Made by a program: the position numbers and the translations under genes. From Bacteroidales bacterium (GTDB lineage Bacteria; Bacteroidota; Bacteroidia; Bacteroidales; F082), in contig JAFYJV010000021.1 of assembly GCA_017537965.1 (NCBI GenBank), positions 2,132-66,131 of the forward strand: a stretch of DNA of 64,000 bases. The letters run 5' to 3'. The notes beneath the pieces were generated by a model. The model worked only from the letters and a program-made list of their open reading frames with translations, did not search any database and was not told the DNA's origin. Below, one piece after another: positions 1-11,455 of this stretch; within the stretch, counting starts at the first letter, position 1, and the number at the start of each line of letters is the position of its first letter.

Positions 1-717
1 GGCTTCGGCCACCGCTTCTGGGTCATCGACGACAAGGCAACCATCGCCGAACTCGTTGAACTCTTCGCCACCAAGGTCCCGGCCATGTACATCGCCGACG
101 GTCACCACCGCAGCGCTGCTGCCGCCCTCGTCGGCCAAGAGAAAAAAGAGAAGAACCCTGCCCACACCGGCAAGGAGGAGTACAACTACTTCATGACCGT
201 CATCTTCCCTGACAACCAGCTGAACGTCATCGACTACAACCGCGTCGTCAAGGATTTGAATGGCTTAAGCAAAGACGAGTTCATTAAGGCCCTCGACAAG
301 ACCTACGTCGTCGAAGACATGGGCACCGAGATCTACAAGCCGGCTAAGCTTCACGAGCACAGCATGTACTTGGATGGTCACTGGTACAAGATGAGCGCAA
401 GACCTGGCACCTACGACGACAACGACCCCATCGGCGTTCTCGACGTGACCATCTTGAGCAACAACGTCTTGGACAACATCCTGGGCATCAAGGACCTCCG
501 TACCGACAAGCGTATCGACTTCGTTGGCGGTATCCGCGGCCTCGGCGAGCTGAAGCGTCGTGTTGACAATGGTGAAATGAAGGTTGCATTCGCAATGTAT
601 CCTGTTTCGATGAAGCAGATCATCGACATCGCCGACACTGGCAACATCATGCCTCCCAAGACCACTTGGTTTGAGCCGAAACTCAGATCAGGACTGGTGA
701 TACATACGCTGGATTGA
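1..717 (+). CDS. DUF1015 family protein (5' end outside window)
   Basis: Frame 1 is open from nt 1 (GFGHRFWVIDD...). ADGHHR motif and overall sequence are typical of DUF1015. The stop is followed by a hairpin terminator. Confidence 0.8.
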   Translation, partial: GFGHRFWVIDDKATIAELVELFATKVPAMYIADGHHRSAAAALVGQEKKEKNPAHTGKEEYNYFMTVIFPDNQLNVIDYNRVVKDLNGLSKDEFIKALDKTYVVEDMGTEIYKPAKLHEHSMYLDGHWYKMSARPGTYDDNDPIGVLDVTILSNNVLDNILGIKDLRTDKRIDFVGGIRGLGELKRRVDNGEMKVAFAMYPVSMKQIIDIADTGNIMPPKTTWFEPKLRSGLVIHTLD

Positions 718-738
718 TTCGGGCAGATGCCTAAAGAA

Positions 739-776
739 AAACCACGGGGCAAAAATTTGTTCCGTGGTTTTGTTTT
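739..776. terminator. Bidirectional rho-independent terminator
   Basis: AAACCACGG-N14-CCGTGGTTT with a T-run on the right and an A-run on the left. It lies between the DUF1015 stop and the distal end of the cassette array. Confidence 0.6.
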
Positions 777-779
777 ATA

Positions 780-803
780 CCCTCAATCCGTGTCGGGCGC
801 AAC
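780..803 (-). repeat. Array repeat copy 1 (orphan distal copy)
   Basis: CCCTCAATCCGTGTCGGGCGCAAC. It lies 9 nt beyond the stop of the last cassette gene. No ORF lies to its left before the terminator. Confidence 0.9.
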
Positions 804-812
804 TATTTGGGT

Positions 813-1865
813 TTATTCTCTTTTTTCTTTCTTCAACAAATCGACAATGAATTTAGTTGAAAGGTCCTTCAGCTTTACAGGATAGTCATTCCATGTGTCC
901 GCATAATCCGTCTCTTCTTTGCTGGTGGTTCGGGGCAGCAAAGAATATGTTTCCCACAGATGTCCCGTTTCGCGTGTAAATACTACTTTCCTGGCACAGC
1001 AGGTCTCCAGCCCTCCAATCAACTCCTCACGGCTCACATCCTCGCCTTTTTCATCAAGAATTGACTGCATCTTGCGGACATCGCTTCCGTTCAGATACCT
1101 GAATTCGGAAAGAATCCTGTGGTACTCTCCCGAAGCAAGATCCACATCCACGCTAACACCCAATTCAATAGGACCGTATGTTTTTCTCAAAGCCTCTTTT
1201 CCTTTAGGCACAAATTTTATAACCGGATACAACTTTTTGTTAAACAATTCGTCTTTCAGCGATTCAAACTCCTCTTCGGTGAGTGGTAGCGCAAACTCCA
1301 AAGGGTCAAAAAAGCCTCTCAACGACCTTCCCATTTGCCAATAATTCGCCACTAATCGCACATAGGGTCCTTCAACGGGTTGCTCAGTATTAGCAGTTTT
1401 GCTTCTCTCCATCAATGTCGATAGCAACAGGCGCAGTTTACATAATGAGCCATCTTTGGCGGTGACAACTTTTCGTAAATCATTTTCTTCAACCACTATC
1501 ACTTCAAGAGAATCACCCATGGCAATATACACATCAATGCGAGCCCAATGTAATACTACCTTTTTAAATGGTTCATGATTGTTCTTGATGAGAATCTCGT
1601 TTTCGATATAATCTATGAGATACCCTCGATTCTTTTTGACATAGGGAGCTCCATCGTTATTAGGAACTGATACGGGAATGGGAATCCGCATAGGGAACGT
1701 CTTTAGTCCATCTATGAACTTCTCTTCCAGCTCATAACAATTGTTCTTGACAGCGGCGTCTCCTTCATTGATGTCATATCCAATGAAATACTGGTAACCG
1801 AGAATCATCTCTGGTGTCACTACTTTGCCAAGTCTCTCCTCAAGGAACAATGTTGTTTCTTCCAT
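813..1865 (-). CDS. Cassette protein, 350 aa, no recognisable family
   Basis: Long ORF starting 9 nt after repeat copy 2. No signal peptide or TM segment seen. Confidence 0.8.
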   Translation of the reverse strand: MEETTLFLEERLGKVVTPEMILGYQYFIGYDINEGDAAVKNNCYELEEKFIDGLKTFPMRIPIPVSVPNNDGAPYVKKNRGYLIDYIENEILIKNNHEPFKKVVLHWARIDVYIAMGDSLEVIVVEENDLRKVVTAKDGSLCKLRLLLSTLMERSKTANTEQPVEGPYVRLVANYWQMGRSLRGFFDPLEFALPLTEEEFESLKDELFNKKLYPVIKFVPKGKEALRKTYGPIELGVSVDVDLASGEYHRILSEFRYLNGSDVRKMQSILDEKGEDVSREELIGGLETCCARKVVFTRETGHLWETYSLLPRTTSKEETDYADTWNDYPVKLKDLSTKFIVDLLKKEKRE

Positions 1866-1874
1866 CGTTTATTG

Positions 1875-1898
1875 CCCTCAATCCGTGTCGGGCGCAAC
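1875..1898 (-). repeat. Array repeat copy 2
   Basis: Identical core sequence, 9 nt upstream of the ATG at 1865. Confidence 0.9.
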
Positions 1899-1936
1899 TT
1901 CTACAAAACTCCTTTTACACTTGTCCGTTTGTATGA

Positions 1937-2383
1937 TCATTGGAGATGAATCTGACGCCATTTCTTTCCCTTTCTTACCTTAATAGAGTTGGGAGTTTCA
2001 ATTACGATTTCATCGTACTTATAAGGCACGACAATCTTGCCGCGACCATTTATAACCCCATACTTAGATTCATGAATTCTTCCAACTGGCACCCACTTTT
2101 CATCAATCACAAGTTCATCTGGCGCAATTTCTGTAATGGAGTATTCAACGTCATACGATTCCACATCCTCATTCACACAGCCGTTAAAGTGTACGGAACG
2201 TATAACACGTCGATAAAGTTTGCCATTCTTTTTAATAATCTCACAATCGCCCACCTCTGGTTCTTTATTACTATCAAATGACGATCCATACGACGACCAT
2301 CTCTTTGTGGGATAGCCTCTTGAATCACATCCTTCAAAATCATAATATTCGTGTCCTGGGTGGATTTCATATATTGTTCCCAT
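1937..2383 (-). CDS. Cassette protein, 148 aa, N-terminal YYD...CDxRGYP module plus WG-like repeat C-terminus
   Basis: The ORF-track start at 2449 reads through the repeat. The internal ATG at 2383 (MGTIYEIH...) has the same spacing to the repeat as the other cassettes. The C-terminus KYGVINGRGKIVVPYKYDEI resembles WG/KWG repeats. Confidence 0.75.
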   Translation of the reverse strand: MGTIYEIHPGHEYYDFEGCDSRGYPTKRWSSYGSSFDSNKEPEVGDCEIIKKNGKLYRRVIRSVHFNGCVNEDVESYDVEYSITEIAPDELVIDEKWVPVGRIHESKYGVINGRGKIVVPYKYDEIVIETPNSIKVRKGKKWRQIHLQ

Positions 2384-2393
2384 ATTCTCAATA

Positions 2394-2417
2394 CCCTCAA
2401 TCCGTGTCGGGCACAAC
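2394..2417 (-). repeat. Array repeat copy 3
   Basis: CCCTCAATCCGTGTCGGGCACAAC (one G to A change), 10 nt upstream of the ATG at 2383. Confidence 0.9.
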
Positions 2418-2421
2418 TTTT

Positions 2422-2859
2422 TTAGGTTAAATCCGTCAAGTATTGCCATGCTCGCAGGTATTTCCGAAGCCGTTTCACATCCTCGTCAGTAATTTCCTTT
2501 AAGCGACGAATGTCCATATTATCCTCTAAATCAGCCCTTTTCACTTCTTTGCCAATGGGATTTATCGAGGCACGACGTACAAATTCTTCATAGGTTTCCC
2601 CTTCATGTTTTGTCACAGATAATATTCCTTCGACAATTTCTTCAGGAAACCCTTGTTCTTGAAGATATTCTCCCGTTACATCAGTATCCTCTAGGGTGTC
2701 GTGCAACAATGCCACAATTTTTGCCTTCGGATCCTTGCATCGTTCAGCCACACGTATCGGATGCATCACATACTCACGGCCCAATTTGTCCTTTTGTCCC
2801 TCGTGTGCTCGGATAGCAATCTTAAGAGCAAGGTCAACTAATTCGCTATAGTCTTTCAT
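2422..2859 (-). CDS. HD-domain small alarmone hydrolase, (p)ppGpp/(p)ppApp hydrolase family (RelA/SpoT hydrolase-like)
   Basis: AHEGQKDKLGREYVMHPIRVA and LLHDTLEDT motifs match the SpoT/Mesh1-type HD hydrolase domain. It is a single domain of 145 aa and the second gene of the cassette behind repeat copy 4. Confidence 0.8.
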   Translation of the reverse strand: MKDYSELVDLALKIAIRAHEGQKDKLGREYVMHPIRVAERCKDPKAKIVALLHDTLEDTDVTGEYLQEQGFPEEIVEGILSVTKHEGETYEEFVRRASINPIGKEVKRADLEDNMDIRRLKEITDEDVKRLRKYLRAWQYLTDLT

Positions 2860-2872
2860 TTTATATTCTTAA

Positions 2873-3160
2873 CTAATGTGCATAATATCCGTGTCTTATA
2901 CCGTTATCATCCAAGAAATATTTAAGAGAGTCAAAATGAAAGCGTTCCTTTATAACCTTGAACAAACCTTCAATCGTATCAACTTTGAGCGCTTTCATCA
3001 GTTCATACACATCAACATTGAAAATGTCTCGTTCAATACTAGCGTCCTCCCAGCAACTGAATTCGCCATTTTCCACAGCAGCACCGTAACCATGGGAGAA
3101 TATCTCACTTTTATTTTGCAATTCCTTAACTTGAGACTTATCCTTTCCTTTTTCTTCCAT
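2873..3160 (-). CDS. Cassette protein, 95 aa, unknown
   Basis: ORF starts 9 nt after repeat copy 4 and lies 13 nt upstream of the HD hydrolase gene. Confidence 0.65.
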   Translation of the reverse strand: MEEKGKDKSQVKELQNKSEIFSHGYGAAVENGEFSCWEDASIERDIFNVDVYELMKALKVDTIEGLFKVIKERFHFDSLKYFLDDNGIRHGYYAH

Positions 3161-3169
3161 TCTTTCATA

Positions 3170-3193
3170 CCCTCAATCCGTGTCGGGCGCAAC
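3170..3193 (-). repeat. Array repeat copy 4
   Basis: Identical core sequence, 9 nt upstream of the ATG at 3160. Confidence 0.9.
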
Positions 3194-3203
3194 TGTTAAT
3201 TGC

Positions 3204-3584
3204 CTATTGATTAATACTATAATACCATATCCCAATAATGACCAACAAGTGCAGCAGTTGGTCGAATCCATAGAGCATCCAATAGGGCTTCTTCTGCTGG
3301 TCGGCCAGTAATGGAAAACGGGCTGTTAGAATGCCTTTGGTTGTATCGATAAGGAAATGCGAAACAAGTTCCGCGAGCATGAGGAGCAGCAAGAGTTTCC
3401 ACGGCACGCCAAAAACCAGCAGGCACACTCCCACCAGCAGCGAATGGATACCTGCATGAAGCAAGATTGGCCACGCCTTTCTCCCATCCGCCTTGGCCCG
3501 TATCATAGAGGGCGTGGTGAAGCAGAAATCGGCCAGATAGTGGCCTATCAACAAAAATATGAGCAAGACAGCATTCATATCCAT
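3204..3584 (-). CDS. DUF3307-like small membrane protein
   Basis: Multi-TM protein with HYLADF...HxL...SHFLIDxxK pattern typical of DUF3307. Start chosen at MDMNAVLL (3584). The longer ORF-track N-terminus overlaps the upstream gene. Confidence 0.65.
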   Translation of the reverse strand: MDMNAVLLIFLLIGHYLADFCFTTPSMIRAKADGRKAWPILLHAGIHSLLVGVCLLVFGVPWKLLLLLMLAELVSHFLIDTTKGILTARFPLLADQQKKPYWMLYGFDQLLHLLVIIGIWYYSINQ

Positions 3585-3676
3585 TGCTTTATCAGGTAGT
3601 CCATGTCGGGACACCTTCAGGCTATCCAGACCTACCAATGTATCAAGGTAAACCTTAGTGTTGATGTTCAAAGATT

Positions 3677-3883
3677 TCACCCTTCCCAATCCCGCCACTT
3701 GATTACCGTGTGTATCTCCGTTCCATCTGGACAATATTCAACAAAATCACCACCTGGATCAACGGACGTTTCATACTCTTCGCCTGTATATCTTATTTCT
3801 CTAATTGGATAGCCACGAGCATCGCATTGGCCTGAATCCATATCGTAGTACACTTCAGCTACTCGTACAATATATCTTCCCAT
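3677..3883 (-). CDS. Cassette protein, 68 aa, paralogous to the N-terminus of the 1937-2383 product
   Basis: MGRYIVRVAEVYYDMDSGQCDARGYP aligns with MGTIYEIHPGHEYYDFEGCDSRGYP. It starts 9 nt after repeat copy 5. Confidence 0.65.
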   Translation of the reverse strand: MGRYIVRVAEVYYDMDSGQCDARGYPIREIRYTGEEYETSVDPGGDFVEYCPDGTEIHTVIKWRDWEG

Positions 3884-3892
3884 GTTTTAATA

Positions 3893-3916
3893 CCCTCAAT
3901 CCGTGTCGGGCGCAAC
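3893..3916 (-). repeat. Array repeat copy 5
   Basis: Identical core sequence, 9 nt upstream of the ATG at 3883. Confidence 0.9.
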
Positions 3917-3974
3917 TTTTATTTATCTGATTGATTCCGTTTCTTATTCCCAGACGTATTGAATAGCTGAACCG

Positions 3975-5027
3975 CTACCATTTTTTTGTGGCAACTCTGT
4001 TATCTGATGATTCAATTTCTATCATAGCATTATGGATTTGTTTTTTAATTTCATCAACATTTTTCTCCTCGAAATAGTTTTTGATCCTTTCCATATCTTC
4101 TATAAACGAAGGCTTTCTTTCTATAATATCCCATGGTTTGGAGGCCCTAAGACTGATATCCCCCTGTCTCATCCCAATAATAGAATAATACGCTATATGA
4201 TGTTGATCAAGTTCAGTTAGACCGATTATCTTATCAAGCTTTTGATACATTTCATCCTCTTTGTCGTGGGAAAGTCGTTTGCGCGTTATCCATGAACAAC
4301 ACTCTTTCAATGCGCTATTGATTTCGGAGATTGCATCTGACAACCCCTTGTATTCTTTTCCTAAGATAGTGACACTCTCACTAAGACTGAAATGATCAGA
4401 AACACGAAGATCAAAACCCTCCTCGGATTTCAATTCCATAATCGCATCACGAAAATCCTGACAAGCAGCCATATCTATCAAATCAACGATATGTACATAA
4501 TCATCTGGCTCTGGAATATCGCCTACTGATACGCCTTCCACAATCACACTTGTATTGAATATCCTGCCTTGATATTCAAACCAATTGTGACCAGAACTTC
4601 GAATATCGACAGTCTCCCCTCTTTCCCTTGCATATTTTTCAATCTTACATGCCACTTCACCGACAAAACACTCTTCCTTCCAGTCATCCAACTTTTTATC
4701 ATAAAAATCATAACATTCCACTTTGACAGATTCGGTTTTAGTGGGCTCTTCTTCCACTTCCTCAACTTCATCATGATTTTGCGGATTTCTATAAACGTCT
4801 GTCTTGTCTTTCTTCAATTGCTGCACTTCCTCTTTTGTTTCAATCGCTTTTTCGTCCTTGATCTCCACCCCCTCATCCTCGGTGACGAGCATACTTGACG
4901 GACCGGGATTGGGAACATCGGTTTGGGAATCCTTTTCTCTTTTGTTCTTTATTCTTGCGGCAAAAACAACCATAATCGCAAACAAAACCGCCGCCGTGAT
5001 AAGTAATAACAATTCTATTGTATCCAT
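3975..5027 (-). CDS. Cassette protein, about 350 aa, N-terminal membrane anchor and acidic/lysine-rich linker
   Basis: ATG at 5027 (MDTIELLLLITAAVLFAIMVVFAA...). The ORF-track TTG start at 5042 lies inside the repeat. Confidence 0.8.
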   Translation of the reverse strand: MDTIELLLLITAAVLFAIMVVFAARIKNKREKDSQTDVPNPGPSSMLVTEDEGVEIKDEKAIETKEEVQQLKKDKTDVYRNPQNHDEVEEVEEEPTKTESVKVECYDFYDKKLDDWKEECFVGEVACKIEKYARERGETVDIRSSGHNWFEYQGRIFNTSVIVEGVSVGDIPEPDDYVHIVDLIDMAACQDFRDAIMELKSEEGFDLRVSDHFSLSESVTILGKEYKGLSDAISEINSALKECCSWITRKRLSHDKEDEMYQKLDKIIGLTELDQHHIAYYSIIGMRQGDISLRASKPWDIIERKPSFIEDMERIKNYFEEKNVDEIKKQIHNAMIEIESSDNRVATKKW

Positions 5028-5035
5028 ATTCCATA

Positions 5036-5059
5036 CCCTCAATCCGTGTCGGGCGCAAC
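5036..5059 (-). repeat. Array repeat copy 6
   Basis: Identical core sequence, 8 nt upstream of the ATG at 5027. Confidence 0.9.
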
Positions 5060-5066
5060 TGTTATA

Positions 5067-5870
5067 TTAATCATATTTTGATTTCAACTCAAGCAATGTC
5101 TTTGATTCTGGATGCCAACTAAGTCCAGACTTGATGTAGTCTTTTATCAGAGCTTCCTCGTCGCCACCAAACAAGGGCTTCCCCAAGGCGAGAGCCGCCT
5201 CAAACGCCCTGATGCAAATGACGTATGACCTTTCTGGAGGATTGGATCTCATCACTTTGTCCAAGCATTCATGAGCCCCCATCCAAGCTGTTTGGATCAA
5301 ACCTGGAATCGTGTTTTGCAAATCAAGCATCGACTCGCTATACTCAAGGACCAGAGGTGTCCTGTTCAATTCGCTGAAAAACGCCAAATCAGATCGTTTC
5401 GTGTTGCCAAAGGTCTGGGAACAAGCGCTGAAATCACCTTTGCGGTGTTGCGCTTCGAGCAGCAACAAATCTGGCATCATAGATGTGGGAAACTCCTCAT
5501 GGAACTTTTTCGCTTTCTGTTCCGCTTCTTCGTACTTTCCTTGCTTCAGCAGCGCATGTATTTCATCCCAAGTGTTTTCGTGAAAGATAAAGTCCCACCC
5601 CATTGTACCTAATTCTTGCTTGTCAAACAATGGCCACCGTCGGTTCTCTTCGGTGACTGTCTCAGGTTCTTCCTTTCTTGTCAACGGCTCTTTCTTCATT
5701 GGCTTCTCTTTTGTTTTCACAGACTCTTGCTTGACAGGAGTTGCCTTATCGACCTGCCGTTTATTAGGCTGTTTATCGCCTTTAGCATCCTTTACAATCT
5801 TACATATCGCTCCAATAATAGGAAGCAAAAAAGCCGCAATACCAATAGCAATGATCACAGTATAATCCAT
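5067..5870 (-). CDS. Cassette protein, 267 aa, N-terminal membrane anchor, K/E/P-rich linker, helical C-domain
   Basis: MDYTVIIAIGIAAFLLPIIGAIC... TM segment. It starts 9 nt after repeat copy 7. Confidence 0.8.
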   Translation of the reverse strand: MDYTVIIAIGIAAFLLPIIGAICKIVKDAKGDKQPNKRQVDKATPVKQESVKTKEKPMKKEPLTRKEEPETVTEENRRWPLFDKQELGTMGWDFIFHENTWDEIHALLKQGKYEEAEQKAKKFHEEFPTSMMPDLLLLEAQHRKGDFSACSQTFGNTKRSDLAFFSELNRTPLVLEYSESMLDLQNTIPGLIQTAWMGAHECLDKVMRSNPPERSYVICIRAFEAALALGKPLFGGDEEALIKDYIKSGLSWHPESKTLLELKSKYD

Positions 5871-5879
5871 AATTCATCA

Positions 5880-5903
5880 CCCTCAATCCGTGTCGGGCGC
5901 AAC
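5880..5903 (-). repeat. Array repeat copy 7
   Basis: Identical core sequence, 9 nt upstream of the ATG at 5870. Confidence 0.9.
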
Positions 5904-5912
5904 TTTTAGTTT

Positions 5913-6497
5913 TCAGCTAAAGATATCTAATCCCTTTAAAATCACGTAAATAATAGTCGTAAGCGCAGTAGCGGCTCCAACAGAAGTTAAAATCTTTTCT
6001 CCCAATCCCACACCGGATGGTAATCCAAAAACAACACAGACGGTTATTGCAATCGCCTCAAACACCACCCATAAACCACATATGATCCAAAAAGTTTTTG
6101 TTAATGACAAAGTTTTCGGCCATCCGATGCGTTCCAACGGCTTTCTGATGCGATCCAAAGTGGCATCCACCTTGTTGAAAAGCTCCTTTCTGCGGTAGGC
6201 TCTTGCTGCAGCTTTTTTCTGTTTGTCTGCTTTTTTGGATAACCTATTGTATTCCTTCCATGTAATTTTTTTAAGATCATAAAACACGTCCAAATCTAAC
6301 GTATCTTCGTATGTATAATGTTCAGATTCACTAGCCCGACATGTAAGGCGGTACGGAGACCCCTTAAAGACAACCGCGCCTTTTTCAAGACTTGAACTGA
6401 AATTCCATTCTTCATCTCTATCCAAAGGCCAATATTGTTTCTGAGCACCATCCTCTGGCACTATCCTATAATAACACGTTTCATAATATCTGTCCAT
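5913..6497 (-). CDS. Cassette protein, 194 aa, C-terminal double TM segment
   Basis: Starts 9 nt after repeat copy 8. Hydrophobic stretches are FWIICGLWVVFEAIAITVCVVFG and VGAATALTTIIYVIL. Confidence 0.8.
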   Translation of the reverse strand: MDRYYETCYYRIVPEDGAQKQYWPLDRDEEWNFSSSLEKGAVVFKGSPYRLTCRASESEHYTYEDTLDLDVFYDLKKITWKEYNRLSKKADKQKKAAARAYRRKELFNKVDATLDRIRKPLERIGWPKTLSLTKTFWIICGLWVVFEAIAITVCVVFGLPSGVGLGEKILTSVGAATALTTIIYVILKGLDIFS

Positions 6498-6506
6498 GGT
6501 TTAATG

Positions 6507-6530
6507 CCCTTAATCCGTGTCGGGCACAAC
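6507..6530 (-). repeat. Array repeat copy 8
   Basis: CCCTTAATCCGTGTCGGGCACAAC (two changes), 9 nt upstream of the ATG at 6497. Confidence 0.9.
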
Positions 6531-6557
6531 TTTTATTGTTAATAAACAATTAGGCTG

Positions 6558-8480
6558 CTATTTGTTTGTTTTCTCCTTGATTAGCGGAACTATCACTTCC
6601 TCAATAGCCTGTCTACTCAAGCGGTGCTCGCCATGGAAATGAACGACATTTTTGTAATGCTGCATGAAAATGTCCTCGCAGTTCACCGTGGTATCGTTGT
6701 CGGCGAAAAGACCATAGACGTTTTCTTTATCCTCTTTTGTAATGTCGTCAAATTGCCGCGCTTCCATGTCAACAAAGTGTTGGATGATTTCGGGCGTGAT
6801 GGTGAAGGTCTTTTCTCCATCACGGCGCGGGTTCAGGAACTCGTACGTACCTTCTTTCAACAAGTGCTGACCTGATTTCTTGAAAAGCCAGCTTAATAAC
6901 GTTTTCTTTCCAGCATCCTCAGTGACTTTCGACAGATAAAACGCCGGATTGATACAGATGCGCTTGTACACGCCCCATTCCTGCCCCATGTGTTCGTTGA
7001 GGACAATGTGTCGACATGCGTTTTGCGACATCATCGCCGCATACATGCCACCCATGCTGGTGCCCACGATCACTTCGGGTCTCAAGTTGGTGGATAGTCC
7101 TTTCAAAAATGGCAATGCCGTTGTTGGATCAATCGGAATGTCGGGAGCAAGGACAATCCAATCGGGCAACAATTCACGAAGTGTTTTCACCGTACTACCT
7201 TCTCCTGAAGAACCAAATCCATGGAAATAAAGCAACAACTTATCGCTTTCTTTGTCAGCTCTACTATATTCAATCCGTTTCTTTTCGAGGTAGGAACAAA
7301 AATCATCAAGCGAATTGTATCTTTGGTACCAGGCCACTTTAAAACGTTTTTTCATCATTTCAACAAAACCAGCCATAGTATTCACAGCATAAATCTCTTC
7401 GTGGCTTAAGAATGAAACCATGTCAACACCTGAAACTTCACAATAGCGGTGCTTTCCCGTGAGCCAATTCCATTTATGCTCTCGTAGACCCATCTTTCCG
7501 TCCAATATACTCAAGAACAGAATGTAGTTTCCGCCTGCACCACCCGTGTTCATTCTTATAGCTCCATTATAACCAGTCATCCAGGCACTGCATTCTCTTT
7601 TTTTATAATAGGTGGCAAAGGCGCTTTCAGGTATTCCCGATTTATAACGGTTAATGTCAGATACTGATTCAGGTATGACGGTTCCTTTGCATCCTACCAA
7701 AAGCTTATTTGTGGCAGTTTCAATAATGGCATTGCAATTGTCACGAGAATCAAATACTTTGTTTTGCTCATCCACGGTAATGGTTGTCAGACTGTCACAT
7801 CCATCAAAAAGATGCCATATAGTAGCACCTGATATTTCCTCCAATGAAGCAGGAAGATGTATGGACTTAAGGCTTTTGCAGTTTGTAAAAGCATTAGCAG
7901 CGATTCTCTTCACTGTTTCAGGAATATTTACCTTCTCCAAAGCCACACATCCATCAAATAGATCGTGAGGTATATCTTCCAAACCCGAGGGCAATATCAC
8001 TTCCTTCAGGCGAGTACAGTTCGCAAAACTTTCTTCCTTCAATTCTCTCACAGAGATGGGAATAGTGATACTTGAAATGGTAGCGTTGCCTTTGAAAGCA
8101 TCGGCATTTATGGCTACAACAGGCTTCGCACCGATCTCACAAGGAATCACTACAACCGCATTGCTGCCGATATACTTTATTATGGAGCAGGTACCCTCTT
8201 CGTGGTTTACCGCTAACCTGAAATCTTGTGTTGATACGACTTCGCCAATTCTCTTAACAGTTACTATCGCATATTCATCAACATCCGAACCACCATGTTC
8301 CTTTATCTCGCGAATGGTGAAATCCTCATGAACGCTGTCAATACGATAGGTTATTCCACCATTGAATGACAGCACATCGCCATATTCTGGGAGATGCCCC
8401 ATACTATAAAAGTCGGGTTTCAACTTTTGACCCGTATCTTTATCATAGTATTCGATATAATCATAGCTTTTGTGATACAT
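6558..8480 (-). CDS. Fusion protein: BspA-type leucine-rich repeats plus C-terminal alpha/beta-hydrolase (YqiA/UPF0227-like esterase)
   Basis: Repeated IPxSVxxIxxxAFxxCxxLxxI units (LRR_5 type). The C-terminal part has LLYFHGFGSSGEG and a GTSMGG nucleophile elbow. ATG at 8480 (MYHKSYDY). No signal peptide. Confidence 0.8.
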   Translation of the reverse strand: MYHKSYDYIEYYDKDTGQKLKPDFYSMGHLPEYGDVLSFNGGITYRIDSVHEDFTIREIKEHGGSDVDEYAIVTVKRIGEVVSTQDFRLAVNHEEGTCSIIKYIGSNAVVVIPCEIGAKPVVAINADAFKGNATISSITIPISVRELKEESFANCTRLKEVILPSGLEDIPHDLFDGCVALEKVNIPETVKRIAANAFTNCKSLKSIHLPASLEEISGATIWHLFDGCDSLTTITVDEQNKVFDSRDNCNAIIETATNKLLVGCKGTVIPESVSDINRYKSGIPESAFATYYKKRECSAWMTGYNGAIRMNTGGAGGNYILFLSILDGKMGLREHKWNWLTGKHRYCEVSGVDMVSFLSHEEIYAVNTMAGFVEMMKKRFKVAWYQRYNSLDDFCSYLEKKRIEYSRADKESDKLLLYFHGFGSSGEGSTVKTLRELLPDWIVLAPDIPIDPTTALPFLKGLSTNLRPEVIVGTSMGGMYAAMMSQNACRHIVLNEHMGQEWGVYKRICINPAFYLSKVTEDAGKKTLLSWLFKKSGQHLLKEGTYEFLNPRRDGEKTFTITPEIIQHFVDMEARQFDDITKEDKENVYGLFADNDTTVNCEDIFMQHYKNVVHFHGEHRLSRQAIEEVIVPLIKEKTNK

Positions 8481-8489
8481 TTCCCTATA

Positions 8490-8513
8490 CCCTGATTCCG
8501 TGTCGGGCGCAAC
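8490..8513 (-). repeat. Array repeat copy 9
   Basis: CCCTGATTCCGTGTCGGGCGCAAC (two changes), 9 nt upstream of the ATG at 8480. Confidence 0.9.
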
Positions 8514-8521
8514 AATAAGTG

Positions 8522-9874
8522 TTAATCCTTGAAAACTATTTTTACTCCTCTCGGAAGGCAACTTTGAATGTTTTCATATAATTTACGACTGATGACGATA
8601 CTTAGGTTTTTGAGCATGTCGTTGTGTAAAAAGAAAATCTCGCCTACGGCATACTGAATATTGTCAGGCATCACCACCTCTTTTAGGCCATCGCAGCAAT
8701 AGAAGACGCTTTCGGCGAAACTAGTGACCGAGTCTGGAATGACAACCTTCTCCAAATGATCATTCATATTGAACGTGTTGCTTTCCAACTTGTGGATGGT
8801 ATCTGGAACGACAAACTCCTTGGCCTCCTTGTTGATGGGATACAACAACAAATGCTCCCCTGCCTTGTCATACAAAACCCCATCAAGCGAAGAGAACACG
8901 TTGTTCGACGGAGACACCTCTATCTCTTTCAATTTCATGCAGTTGTAGAAAGCATACCGGTCAATGCGATTGACAGAAGCAGGAATGACGACTTTTTCAA
9001 GGTGCTCGCATTCGCGAAACGTATGGCCATAAATGGCATGGATGGTATTCGGAACAGAAAACGCTTTTGCTTCCCTGTTCATGGAATAGGCGACCAACTC
9101 CTCAACTGACTTGTCATACAGGACCCCATCAATCGATGCATATTGTTGGTTTGCAGGATCAACAACGATCTCTTTCAGGTTTTTGCACAATATCAGTCCT
9201 CCCCCTGATTCGATTTTAGTCACTGATGCGGGGATAGTGATCGTCTCCATTGAGTCACAGCCTGTAAATGCGCCGTCGCCTATCGTTTCCAAGTTCGGGG
9301 ACAGATCGATATGGGCAAGCGATTTGCAATTACAGAAAGCGCCACTGCAGACGGCCGTTACACTGTCAGGGATTTCAACGTGTTCAAGCGACTCACAGCC
9401 CGTGAACATCCCCTTTGAAATGCATTTATGTTTTTCGCAGTTGGTGATGTGAACGGTTTTCAAGTTCTTGCAATCCTCGAATATCCCGTATGTATTTTTG
9501 TCAAGCCAGACATGGTCTGGGATATCCACCTCTCTCAGTCCTTCTATTTCTTTGTATTGACGAGAGACAAGGAAACTGGAATCGATCGCAATCCTTCCGC
9601 TACGATGCACTTTGAATTTCGTATCGTAACCTATTTTGGCACTCGCATACCCATCCTCGTCAAAATCCGACAACTCCTCGAACGAAGGAGAGACTACTAT
9701 ATGGAATTTGTCGTCGAAGTACTTCAAGATGCCCCACAGGCCATATTTTCGGACCTTGATATAGGACACCTCGGTAGTTTTCTCGATGACATCACACCGT
9801 GACACCCACGAATCGCTCACTTCCGGGTATTCGAGGGTCTCACAGTCATTATTGATCAGTTCGGTTGTGCTCAT
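8522..9874 (-). CDS. Cytosolic BspA-type leucine-rich repeat protein (first gene of the array)
   Basis: Many IPxSVxxIxxxAFxxCxxLxxI repeats and no signal peptide. It is the only array gene without a full repeat upstream. Confidence 0.85.
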   Translation of the reverse strand: MSTTELINNDCETLEYPEVSDSWVSRCDVIEKTTEVSYIKVRKYGLWGILKYFDDKFHIVVSPSFEELSDFDEDGYASAKIGYDTKFKVHRSGRIAIDSSFLVSRQYKEIEGLREVDIPDHVWLDKNTYGIFEDCKNLKTVHITNCEKHKCISKGMFTGCESLEHVEIPDSVTAVCSGAFCNCKSLAHIDLSPNLETIGDGAFTGCDSMETITIPASVTKIESGGGLILCKNLKEIVVDPANQQYASIDGVLYDKSVEELVAYSMNREAKAFSVPNTIHAIYGHTFRECEHLEKVVIPASVNRIDRYAFYNCMKLKEIEVSPSNNVFSSLDGVLYDKAGEHLLLYPINKEAKEFVVPDTIHKLESNTFNMNDHLEKVVIPDSVTSFAESVFYCCDGLKEVVMPDNIQYAVGEIFFLHNDMLKNLSIVISRKLYENIQSCLPRGVKIVFKD

Positions 9875-10012
9875 TTTATTAATCCTCTATGAATTCCATC
9901 TTGACATCTTCGTCAGTGAACAACCTTTTGTTTTCTTCGTAGGTTTCCTTGGTTGTTTGTATTGTTTTCAAATTCGGAGTATCTTCCCATTTTGTATTGT
10001 TTTTGAGATGGA

Positions 10013-10020
10013 CAAAGATA
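10013..10020 (-). promoter_or_regulatory. Candidate -7 box (TATCTTTG) for the cassette array
   Basis: Plus-strand CAAAGATA reads as the Bacteroidetes TAnnTTTG consensus on the minus strand, about 140 nt upstream of the first array ATG. Confidence 0.35.
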
Positions 10021-10032
10021 CCGCTTTTTTCT

Positions 10033-10040
10033 TACTTTTG
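10033..10040 (+). promoter_or_regulatory. Candidate -7 box (TACTTTTG) for xerD
   Basis: Matches TAnnTTTG but sits only 10 nt before the ATG at 10051, which would give a very short leader. Confidence 0.3.
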
Positions 10041-10050
10041 CAAGACAAAG

Positions 10051-10998
10051 ATGAACAAGTCTTCTGCAAATATCAGCCCCAATCTCATCAAGCACTACGC
10101 CGACCATCTGCGGCTAGAACTTTCATTGTCCGACAACAGCGTGGATGCCTATCGCCATGATGTCAACCTATTTCTGCAATATCTTGAAAGCCAGAGCTAT
10201 CCAACTGATATCAGCGCCATCACACAAGACACCATTGAGAATTTCTTCGCCTATCTCTATGACTTGAACATCGGCGCCACGTCGCAAGCCCGTATCCTAT
10301 CAGGCTTGAAGTCGTTTTGGCGCTATCTGATCCAAGAAGACCTGGCTGAAAAAGACCCTTGCGAACTCATCACCTCTCCTACGCTTGGCCGTCATCTTCC
10401 TGAAGTGTTGAGTTTCGAAGAGATTCAGAAAATGATCGACAGCATCGACCTCAGCCAGCCCACAGGCCATCGCAACAAAGCCATGATCGAAGTGATGTAC
10501 GGCTGCGGCTTGCGCGTTTCCGAGCTCATAGGACTACAAATCAGCAACATTTACCGCAAAGACGGATTCCTCCGCATCACCGGCAAAGGCAGCAAGGAAA
10601 GGCTCGTCCCCATCGGCGACAGCAGCTTGAAGATCCTATATCAGTACATTGAAGGCGCCAGACTTCACATCACACCGAAACCCAAATACACCGACACCGT
10701 CTTCCTTAATAGTCGCGGCACAGGCTTGACGCGACAAACAGTCTTCCTACTGGTAAAGGAACTCGCTGAAAAGAACGGCATCAAAAAGGCCATCAGCCCG
10801 CACACCTTCCGTCACAGCTTCGCCACGCACCTGCTCGAAGGCGGTGCCAACCTTCTGGCCGTACAGCAGATGCTCGGTCATGCCAGCGTCAGCACCACCG
10901 AGATCTATACGCACATTTCAGATGATCTATTACGGGAAACCCTAACGGAATTCCATCCGCGACTTAAACACAGACAGAAGATAACTCCTAACTCCTAA
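10051..10998 (+). CDS. xerD: Tyrosine site-specific recombinase XerD
   Basis: The N-terminal SAM-like domain and the catalytic motifs GLRVSEL, HTFRHSFATHLL and LGHASVSTTEIYTH fit the XerC/XerD family. Start taken at MNKSSANI; the ORF-track TTG at 9949 is unlikely. Confidence 0.85.
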   Translation: MNKSSANISPNLIKHYADHLRLELSLSDNSVDAYRHDVNLFLQYLESQSYPTDISAITQDTIENFFAYLYDLNIGATSQARILSGLKSFWRYLIQEDLAEKDPCELITSPTLGRHLPEVLSFEEIQKMIDSIDLSQPTGHRNKAMIEVMYGCGLRVSELIGLQISNIYRKDGFLRITGKGSKERLVPIGDSSLKILYQYIEGARLHITPKPKYTDTVFLNSRGTGLTRQTVFLLVKELAEKNGIKKAISPHTFRHSFATHLLEGGANLLAVQQMLGHASVSTTEIYTHISDDLLRETLTEFHPRLKHRQKITPNS

Positions 10999-11009
10999 CT
11001 CCCAACTAA
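10982..11009. repeat. Heptamer tract (TAACTCC x3 plus CAACTAA)
   Basis: Tandem 7-nt units contain the stop codons of both convergent genes (xerD TAA at 10996-10998; minus-strand gene stop at 11006-11008). Confidence 0.8.
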
Positions 11010-11455
11010 ATTATGTTTCCTTGGTCATCGACAAGGACTCCCCAGCTTACTGCTGTCATCGTCTCTCCATCAAAGAAAAAATCGATCATGGCGTCCTCGA
11101 AGGAGACTCTATGCTCGCCATCCTCGTCTTCCTCTTCCAATTCCGAGAAGCCATTTTGGCGCATCAACTCGATCACCTGGGCGCGACTAAGGTCGAAAAC
11201 CTTAGTGCCATACAACACCGAATCCTCATTCTCAGTCTCAAAGCAAGCGGCAACCGACTTGGTGATGCCCTCAAAATAGATGCTGGTGGCCAAAGCATCG
11301 TATTGATAGTATATGGAACGGTTCCCAGTCTCCTCCATATCGTTGAGTTCTTCATAAAAATCGGGCATTCCCAGCATTTTCACTGCATCGTCCAAAGGCA
11401 TTCCGAAAGGTATTTGGCCGAAACCTTTCAACGGCTCAATCAGATAGTTTTCCAT
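11006..11455 (-). CDS. Hypothetical acidic protein, 149 aa
   Basis: Clean ORF convergent with xerD. No family recognised. Confidence 0.7.
   Translation of the reverse strand: MENYLIEPLKGFGQIPFGMPLDDAVKMLGMPDFYEELNDMEETGNRSIYYQYDALATSIYFEGITKSVAACFETENEDSVLYGTKVFDLSRAQVIELMRQNGFSELEEEDEDGEHRVSFEDAMIDFFFDGETMTAVSWGVLVDDQGNII

Follow-up and report, generated by a model that had tools for sequence, protein, structure and literature searches.

What might a small, stand-alone hydrolase of the RelA/SpoT homologue (RSH) superfamily be doing amongst the cassettes of a recombinase-associated gene array in a rumen member of the Bacteroidales? The question is raised by a gene at positions 2422-2859 of a 64,000 nucleotide stretch of contig JAFYJV010000021.1 (assembly GCA_017537965.1, Bacteroidales bacterium, forward-strand positions 2,132 to 66,131). 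This stretch, at its full length, is what we call the window, and all coordinates refer to it. The 145 amino acid product is near-certainly, on the basis of its sequence, an Aph1-family metal-dependent HD-domain 3'-pyrophosphohydrolase for adenosine alarmones. We put at roughly 0.6 the probability that the gene, carried in an array resembling rAID (recombinase-associated acquired interbacterial defence) arrays, serves there as an orphan enzymatic immunity or detoxification factor against (p)ppApp-synthetase toxins.

The gene, referred to below as the Aph gene, is the second of a two-gene unit whose parts are as follows:

2422-2859, minus strand: Aph-type hydrolase gene, 145 amino acids, second in the two-gene unit, its start 13 nt past the stop of p95
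2873-3160, minus strand: p95 gene, 95 amino acids, first in the two-gene unit
3170-3193, minus strand: array repeat at the 5' edge of the p95-Aph unit (exact 19-mer plus the block seen in the nine-copy alignment)
2394-2417, minus strand: array repeat at the 3' edge of the p95-Aph unit, starting 4 nt past the Aph stop, with a gene for a 148 amino acid protein next

Both open reading frames (ORFs) had been picked out in a first-pass annotation made from the sequence alone, which left their strand unstated and proposed that they share a cassette. The ORFs exist as described. So does the cassette: the two genes are 13 nt apart, core copies of the repeat at 3170-3188 and 2394-2412 bracket exactly these two ORFs, and the unit recurs in other arrays.

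Family and predicted substrate of the hydrolase

A phmmer search of the PDB with the 145 amino acid protein returned 7SMG, described as a '(p)ppApp hydrolase' (E 8.7e-52), which is the Aph1 enzyme of Bacteroides caccae (also BcSAH, BACCAC_01146). The alignment covers residues 3-142 of the 149 amino acid chain at 57% identity and has no gaps. The hydrolase signatures quoted in the first-pass annotation are present, as AHEGQ...HP and LLHDTLEDT. Profile searches, which the annotation had proposed as a check, were less decisive: Pfam HD_4 matches below its gathering score (E 1.4e-5; 25.3 against 27.2 bits) and NCBIfam reports generic RelA/SpoT similarity only, and it is the comparison with the PDB that gives the Aph1 family. 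The PHROG match is to phrog_990 (E 1.1e-48) and the database holds 1194 homologues at E <= 1e-10. In a Pfam scan of the protein and its neighbours, no RSH synthetase or regulatory domain was found either fused or adjacent to it, in agreement with the description of the product as a hydrolase without such domains.

Because the alignment is ungapped, the residue numbering of Aph1 transfers directly. The metal-binding and catalytic residues (H19, H33, H53, D54, D58, D113 and N114) are present, and invariant in 57 relatives. Also present, with the same numbering, are all six residues associated with (p)ppApp specificity, of which D24, R96, D116, R119 and Y134 are invariant in these relatives whilst K133 is found in 51. 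The C-terminal 53 residues that define the family (Y90-E143) align without gaps from 90 to 141 and contain the conserved block DLEDNMDI.RL. An AlphaFold2 (AF2) model of the protein (pLDDT 91.8) superposes on 7SMG with a TM score of 0.94 and a root-mean-square deviation of 1.3 Å (Foldseek), compared with TM scores of 0.80 or less for the (p)ppGpp hydrolases MESH1 and PaSAH and the Rel and SpoT domains.

In the published work on Aph1, the enzyme hydrolyses pApp, ppApp and pppApp whilst leaving ppGpp intact, activity on ppGpp is acquired by the D24R/R119A double mutant, and all of the 12 homologues that were purified, each drawn from a different cluster, hydrolyse ppApp (Ahmad et al. 2023, PNAS, PMC10083569). 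As all six specificity residues, including D24 and R119, are present in the window protein, its predicted substrate is (p)ppApp and not (p)ppGpp. Of the (p)ppGpp/(p)ppApp-type enzyme first proposed, the stand-alone HD hydrolase of the RSH superfamily thus stands, whilst the signature speaks against the (p)ppGpp half.

How such an enzyme might protect a cell is suggested by Aph1 itself which, in the same study, partly rescues Escherichia coli from both its cognate prophage toxin Apk2 and the Pseudomonas type VI secretion system (T6SS) effector Apk1/Tas1; the structural immunity protein BcTis1 gave no cross-protection (PMC10083569). In the sequence of events that we propose, p95 and then Aph would probably be co-transcribed from the array as one two-gene unit. 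A (p)ppApp-synthetase toxin would enter the cell, either as an Apk-type T6SS effector or as phage MuF-Apk2, and Aph would remove the 3'-pyrophosphate from pApp, ppApp and pppApp to yield AMP, ADP and ATP, so returning the toxic product to usable adenine nucleotides, with protection that is probably partial. Because the enzyme acts on the product and not on the toxin protein, protection would be independent of toxin sequence, a property that would suit orphan carriage. The idea of catalytic immunity put forward in the first-pass annotation is right in kind, as shown by Aph1 with Apk2 and Tas1/Apk1, but it had been presented as an unusual mode and is in fact already published.

Two other substrates deserve consideration. 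A general (p)ppGpp small alarmone hydrolase (SAH) that tunes the stringent response would be in keeping with the generic HD_4 or RelA/SpoT similarity returned by Pfam and NCBIfam. We find this scarcely credible, however, given that D24 and R119, both of which had to be mutated for Aph1 to act on ppGpp, are present and invariant, that the model fits Aph1 better than it does any of the (p)ppGpp hydrolases, and that the protein is as short as Aph1. The second candidate is the pyrophosphorylated 3'-CCA end of tRNA, from which the enzyme might remove pyrophosphate as an antidote to tRNA-targeting toxic small alarmone synthetases (toxSAS) of the FaRel2, PhRel2 or CapRel type, as some SAH antitoxins do. 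The superfamily is shared, and so is the chemistry, namely removal of a 3'-pyrophosphate from adenosine; SAH antitoxins of toxSAS are known, and are reportedly the subject of work by Kurata and colleagues in 2021. Nevertheless this is highly unlikely, as the family signature was defined on enzymes that hydrolyse ppApp (all 12 of those tested), the cognate toxin of Aph1 makes (p)ppApp, and no toxSAS gene is adjacent. The first-pass suggestion of a toxSAS antitoxin likewise fails for want of a linked synthetase gene.

The SAH antitoxins of toxSAS modules (ATfaRel, for example) and PaSAH of P. aeruginosa resemble the window protein in that each is a stand-alone hydrolase of the RSH type that undoes what a toxic synthetase makes, and PaSAH lessens Tas1/Apk1 toxicity. 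However, the genes for toxSAS SAHs adjoin the toxin gene whereas the window gene does not, and enzymes of the PaSAH type are longer, act on (p)ppGpp as well and give a TM score of 0.79 to the model. Aph1, in contrast, is a single-domain HD hydrolase of about 145 amino acids from the same phylum with identical catalytic residues and signature. What differs is the setting: Aph1 sits in a prophage module comprising MuF-Apk2, BcTis1 and Aph1, whereas the window gene has neither toxin nor Tis1 beside it, is preceded by an unrelated gene for a 95 amino acid protein and lies in a chromosomal recombinase-associated array.

The array, its repeat and its recombinase

The array and its flanks comprise the following further features:

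780-9874, minus strand: the whole array, 11 co-oriented genes (813-9874) in repeat-bounded units
1937-2449, minus strand: ORF of the 148 amino acid gene downstream of Aph, true start at ATG 2383 according to the gene call in the identical contig L006
3204-3883, minus strand: adjacent upstream unit, a 68 amino acid gene plus a DUF3307 membrane protein gene, given as context and not as a proven part
9949-10998, plus strand: XerD-type tyrosine recombinase, divergent from the array
85-717: 3' end of a DUF1015 gene, the other landmark flanking the array

The repeat has a 19 nt core, CCCTCAATCCGTGTCGGGC on the plus strand, of which there are nine copies within 780-8508 (starting at 780, 1875, 2394, 3170, 3893, 5036, 5880, 6507 and 8490) with a chance expectation of 0.02. 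The block conserved amongst the copies spans about 24 nt, and on the coding strand about 10 nt separate its end from the first ATG of each unit. The copy at 3170-3193 reads GTTGCGCCCGACACGGATTGAGGG on the minus strand, with 9 nt between its end and the p95 ATG, and in other genomes the repeat is placed likewise relative to the ATG. Three minus-strand ORFs, 1937-2449, 3975-5042 (TTG start) and 6558-8561, are over-extended at their 5' ends through a repeat, which is then translated as ...RPTRIEG.... The genes truly begin at the ATGs 2383, 5027 and about 8480, each of which lies some 10 nt past a repeat, so that the overlap seen between 1937-2449 and the hydrolase gene is apparent only, an artefact of the over-extension. 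Upstream of the first array gene, at 9875-9948, the coding strand reads AAGGTTGTTCACTGACGAAGATG...ATAGAGGATTAATAAAATG, which resembles a degenerate repeat.

The GC content of the array is 42.6% (42.9% for Aph and 37.2% for p95), compared with 49.7% for the remaining window. The recombinase matches Pfam Phage_integrase (E 5.6e-46) and SAM_1 and scores 340.3 bits against the NCBIfam XerD equivalog, above the cut-off of 329.6, whilst two NCBIfam integron-integrase models fall below theirs (138.7 against 265 and 81.7 against 435). Its translation probably starts near 10051, as in L005, an identical contig, the gene was called shorter, at 315 amino acids.

These features recall rAID and rAID-1 arrays in that a XerD-like recombinase accompanies co-oriented genes separated by conserved intergenic repeats, with GC content lower than in the flanks; the likeness of the repeat to that of rAID-1 rests on the presence of a conserved intergenic motif and not on the letters of the motif. 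As in rAID, moreover, the cassette content of one site differs between genomes. We fetched relatives of the window's elements for comparison, labelling loci or contigs with L-numbers and proteins with P-numbers. The array itself recurs unchanged in two ruminant gut (rumen) metagenome contigs, L005 and L006, but in other genomes the site between recombinase and DUF1015 gene holds different cargo. In L002 the final gene at this site is a p95 homologue with no hydrolase gene after it, and in L106, a metagenome-assembled genome (MAG) of a rumen Candidatus Limimorpha, where the DUF1015 flank is 85% identical at the DNA level, an Aph homologue comes last, directly after a repeat.

The architecture is best called rAID-like, as it also departs from rAID in several respects. 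Published criteria for rAID-1 include a recombinase at least 44% identical to BF9343_RS08045, at least two genes of one direction downstream of it and an array GC content of 41% or less (Ross et al. 2019, bioRxiv 10.1101/471110). The window array, at 42.6%, exceeds the GC threshold, which was set on different genomes. Its recombinase is divergent from the 11 array genes, whereas the description of rAID-1 implies a single direction. Several of its genes are far longer than the 100-300 codons of rAID genes, none of its cargo matches a known T6SS immunity family, and its host belongs to the rumen Bacteroidales whereas rAID hosts are Bacteroides of the human gut. The rAID papers (10.1101/471110; 10.1101/2025.05.03.651265) make no mention of enzymes like Aph amongst the cargo. 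In the literature searched we found no paper that links Aph with rAID arrays, and the Aph1 paper mentions neither AID nor rAID arrays.

Chromosomal integrons offer a further parallel, with their divergent tyrosine recombinase and promoter-poor, co-oriented cassettes separated by a repeat, and sedentary integrons have been reported as stores of defence genes. Here, however, the recombinase scores as XerD and not IntI, the repeat lies about 10 nt upstream of the first ATG and not at the 3' end of the cassette, and unlike attC it is conserved in sequence and forms no hairpin. Nor does it appear to be a structured RNA or a member of a known RNA family: Rfam gave nothing at E <= 1, and the repeat offers a 3-bp stem (-1.8 kcal/mol) with no covariation.

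The exact 19-mer, GTTGCGCCCGACACGGATT, was found in at least 120 metagenome contigs from the rumen, the human gut and other sources. Most of these stored stretches carry one copy with no recombinase nearby. Of 16 long loci, 15 have an ORF whose ATG follows the start of the motif by about 30-33 nt, several such ORFs having signal-peptide-like starts. A TAnnTTTG -7 box of the Bacteroides type lies upstream of the motif in several loci; none was found on the array strand in the intergenic spaces of the array (window 1-10000). Instead of, or besides, being an attC-like site, the repeat may therefore be an expression or 5'-leader element or the scar of a solo cassette.

Related arrays with the same repeat (L002, L015/L016, L018, L376 and L380-382) carry conflict-type and nucleotide-metabolism genes, amongst them AbiEii with its partner, Macro-TIR, AAA_14/DUF4143 ATPases, DUF3791 with DUF3990, NT5C, an HD (PF01966) protein, a UPF0227 hydrolase and AAA_28. 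Such arrays may be general stores of conflict genes rather than purely stores of T6SS immunity genes. In the window, PADLOC found no known defence system for any cassette protein. The products of the two recombinase-proximal genes (6558-8561 and 8522-9874, both minus strand) are BspA-type LRR_5 proteins of large size, 667 (or 640) and 450 amino acids, and atypical cargo for an 'immunity' array. The first ends in an alpha/beta-hydrolase domain (UPF0227-like) 63% identical to a stand-alone cassette protein of L376, and the second has a WG repeat.

Relatives of the hydrolase and of p95

Where else is the hydrolase found? Homologues of the viral Aph1 clade are 55-59% identical to the window protein. 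MuF-Apk2 is present in 148 and BcTis1 in 119 of 154 fetched viral loci with an Aph1-clade gene; none of the 154 has p95 or DUF3307. Cellular Bacteroidales copies are 70-81% identical, and this clade was not found on viral contigs. Capture of the window gene from the MuF prophage clade is not supported by these figures. In species-representative genomes, the best 80 loci (45-81% identity) come mostly from MAGs of rumen or gut Prevotellaceae or other Bacteroidales, and their neighbourhoods are extremely diverse. Array-borne copies occur in at least six distinct array contexts, so that orthologues are not uniformly housekeeping genes outside arrays, which the first-pass annotation had named as a refuting observation; in a neighbour-joining tree, array-borne and other copies are interspersed, although with such short sequences the tree is not robust.

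A number of these observations, together with others from the window, weigh against an immunity function. The window protein is closer to the non-phage Bacteroidales copies than to the toxin-linked phage clade. Only four of the 80 species-level loci (L104, L106, L121 and L126) have the array repeat near the Aph homologue, and the gene is best described as an accessory gene that moves between contexts, array location being the exception and not the rule. In one group at 75-77% identity (L008-L014 and L107), Aph keeps the same chromosomal surroundings, following a nitroreductase gene, which fits a physiological role. The 64-kb window has no Apk2-like gene (tblastn with Apk2, best E 0.77), no Tis1-like gene and no second copy of Aph. 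At the thresholds used, no other cassette protein in it matches a known immunity or defence family in Pfam, PADLOC or NCBIfam, so that of the immunity-type array proposed in the first-pass annotation it is the recombinase-associated array that stands. Single copies of the repeat also precede unrelated genes, so that it is no more than a putative recombination site. Finally, published turnover numbers are about 478 per minute for Aph1 and 180,000 per minute for Apk1, so that protection by Aph would at best be partial.

Several of these points bear on the view that Aph is a physiological housekeeping enzyme clearing endogenous (p)ppApp or pApp, formed as a by-product or a signal, and that it is in the array only incidentally, the array taking up accessory genes of every sort. 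Arrays are not where most homologues are found, and the neighbourhoods are diverse, with no neighbour family in more than six of the 80 loci; synteny after the nitroreductase gene is stable in the group just mentioned; and the remaining cargo of the window array is not recognisably immunity. Signalling roles for non-phage Aph genes have also been proposed in the Aph1 study (Ahmad et al. 2023, PMC10083569). Against this, a repeat-flanked, movable unit present in several arrays and positions would be unexpected for a gene of this kind, and the change of neighbourhood from species to species suggests that the gene is accessory and not core. Furthermore, we know of no endogenous (p)ppApp pathway in Bacteroidales. 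A housekeeping role is a serious possibility but on balance unlikely, and immunity or detoxification remains our preferred reading. In the nitroreductase-linked group, a stretch about 40 nt upstream of the Aph ATG (...CCAACCACGGATTCAGAGG...) looks by eye like a degenerate array repeat (...GCCCGACACGGATTGAGGG...), a visual impression only, though one that might point to a cassette as the origin of these copies.

The commonest recurrent neighbour of Aph homologues is a polytopic membrane protein of the DUF3307 family (six of the 80 loci), for which the literature offers a single passing mention. In the window its gene (3204-3734, minus strand; Pfam DUF3307 E 1.2e-18) belongs to the unit adjacent to p95-Aph, as it does in L376. 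Elsewhere it lies immediately downstream of Aph, sometimes overlapping it (L018-20, L104, L119, L121, L123 and L380-382), and two of these loci, L119 and L123, are outside arrays. The array context in L015/L016 has Macro-TIR, AAA_28 and DUF3307 genes, whilst in L018 and L380-382 a repeat-bounded unit runs from an 87 or 121 amino acid gene through NT5C, a 144 amino acid gene and Aph to DUF3307, with AbiEii nearby. Such associations raise the question of whether Aph is part of a multi-gene module for nucleotide processing, its partners being DUF3307 and, in relatives, also NT5C and a hydrolase of the UPF0227 type. The module might act in phage defence or counter-defence or detoxify several aberrant nucleotides, with (p)ppApp hydrolysis as just one of its steps. 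NT5C accompanies Aph in L018, L376 and L380-382, and AbiEii and Macro-TIR genes are found in related arrays. However, both in the window and in L376 a repeat stands between DUF3307 and Aph, which places them in different units, and in L106 Aph follows a repeat without any partner gene. PADLOC has no defence family for these proteins, and a phage DUF3307-Aph module was looked for and rejected, there being no phage record with a relative of this DUF3307 and no DUF3307 in phage Aph1 loci. We consider such a module improbable as the explanation for the window gene.

What, then, of p95? Homologues form 21 clusters amongst 5.8 billion proteins, at 59-97% identity, and a profile search of 1.84 billion representatives gave 18 matches: p95 is a real, conserved gene of a very narrow family. 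It has no match in Pfam, PHROG, PADLOC or NCBIfam. Its AF2 model (pLDDT 79.7) comprises a sheet of four strands, three helices and one last strand, and its N-terminus is hydrophilic; at that model quality no PDB chain matched at E <= 0.001 (best E 0.17), nor was there a match in BFVD. Viral contigs gave 72 pattern matches, but not one of these encodes a relative. The p95 domain is also found at the C-terminus of longer proteins (P0142, P0146, P0148 and P0150; 211-310 amino acids) whose N-termini are unrelated and unannotated, and a distant copy is present in a 114 amino acid array protein (L376, 3499-3843). Its behaviour is that of a shuffled module.

Going by the gene order Apk2-Tis1-Aph1, one might expect p95 to resemble Tis1, as both are small cytoplasmic proteins (75 amino acids for BcTis1) encoded directly upstream of Aph. 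With the BcTis1 sequence of a viral contig whose Aph1 is 100% identical, however, hhalign gave a probability of 0.1, whilst phmmer against the PDB returned nothing at E <= 10 and no fold match was seen. Unlike Tis1, p95 also occurs without Aph and as a C-terminal domain. The p95-Aph pair has nonetheless stayed together over considerable divergence, being found at three further loci with the following identities to the window proteins:

L376/L377: p95 72%, Aph 97%
L001: p95 70%, Aph 78%
L104: p95 65%, Aph 75%

Repeats flank the pair in L376 too, where the array is a different one. Either gene can also be found alone, p95 without Aph in L002 and Aph without p95 in L106. Co-inheritance could mean simply that the two travel as one unit, although a functional link is possible, and p95 may be a passenger in its own right or else a second protective factor that is not an enzyme.

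A more ambitious version of the immunity reading, which we regard as speculative and rather unlikely, takes one of two forms. p95-Aph could be a two-layer orphan immunity cassette in which p95 would be a stoichiometric Apk inhibitor of a new kind and Aph would clear the product that escapes; this would mirror the bicistronic immunity of Tis1 and Aph1 with an unrelated first component, the inhibited effectors coming from Bacteroidetes T6SS or phage MuF proteins. Alternatively, Aph, DUF3307 and NT5C could constitute a 'toxic-nucleotide clearance' kit exchanged by rAID-like arrays amongst rumen Bacteroidales.

Candidate toxins and the possible reach of (p)ppApp warfare

A search with the toxin domain of Apk2 found 89 relatives. 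One of these, P0205 (locus L383/L384, region 10001-11182), is a 314 amino acid protein with an N-terminal DUF4280 domain, which we take to be the PAAR-like domain of the T6SS spike tip, and a C-terminal domain about 48% identical to the Apk2 toxin domain. Its gene comes directly after VgrG in a locus that also encodes a ClpV-like protein, TssC (PF17541) and two TssD proteins (PF17642), the latter two families presumably being built on the Bacteroidetes type of T6SS. The 75 amino acid protein encoded after P0205 is 48% identical to BcTis1, making the two a candidate T6SS (p)ppApp-synthetase effector-immunity pair in Bacteroidetes. This T6SS locus has no Aph gene. The suggestion in the first-pass annotation that RSH-domain effectors be sought in T6SS loci of co-resident Bacteroidales was thus productive insofar as P0205 lies in a Bacteroidetes-type locus, but the locus is not tied to the window's host. 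Another relative, P0200, is a 247 amino acid Apk-like protein from a Prevotella MAG in a mobile-element-like neighbourhood with Fic and SocA_Panacea genes. Since (p)ppApp-synthetase-like toxins are available to Bacteroidetes through both T6SS and prophages, an immunity function for Aph is ecologically plausible.

Aph enzymes and enzymatic immunity (2023) and rAID arrays (2019) are already in the literature. What our comparisons appear to add is the recurrence of Aph as cargo of rAID-like arrays in rumen Bacteroidales, often together with p95; further additions are the p95 family, DUF3307 and NT5C as co-travellers, and the Apk-like T6SS effector with its Tis1-like neighbour, in which there is now a concrete candidate toxin. 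The gain therefore lies in ecology and distribution and not in mechanism. If the immunity reading is true, the recombinase-associated arrays of Bacteroidales would store enzymes that degrade a toxin's product in addition to orphan immunity proteins that bind toxins, and Aph, needing no co-evolution with a single effector, would be an obvious candidate for horizontal spread. (p)ppApp warfare and its countermeasures would then extend from the prophages of human-gut Bacteroides and the T6SS of Pseudomonas to the Bacteroidales of the rumen.

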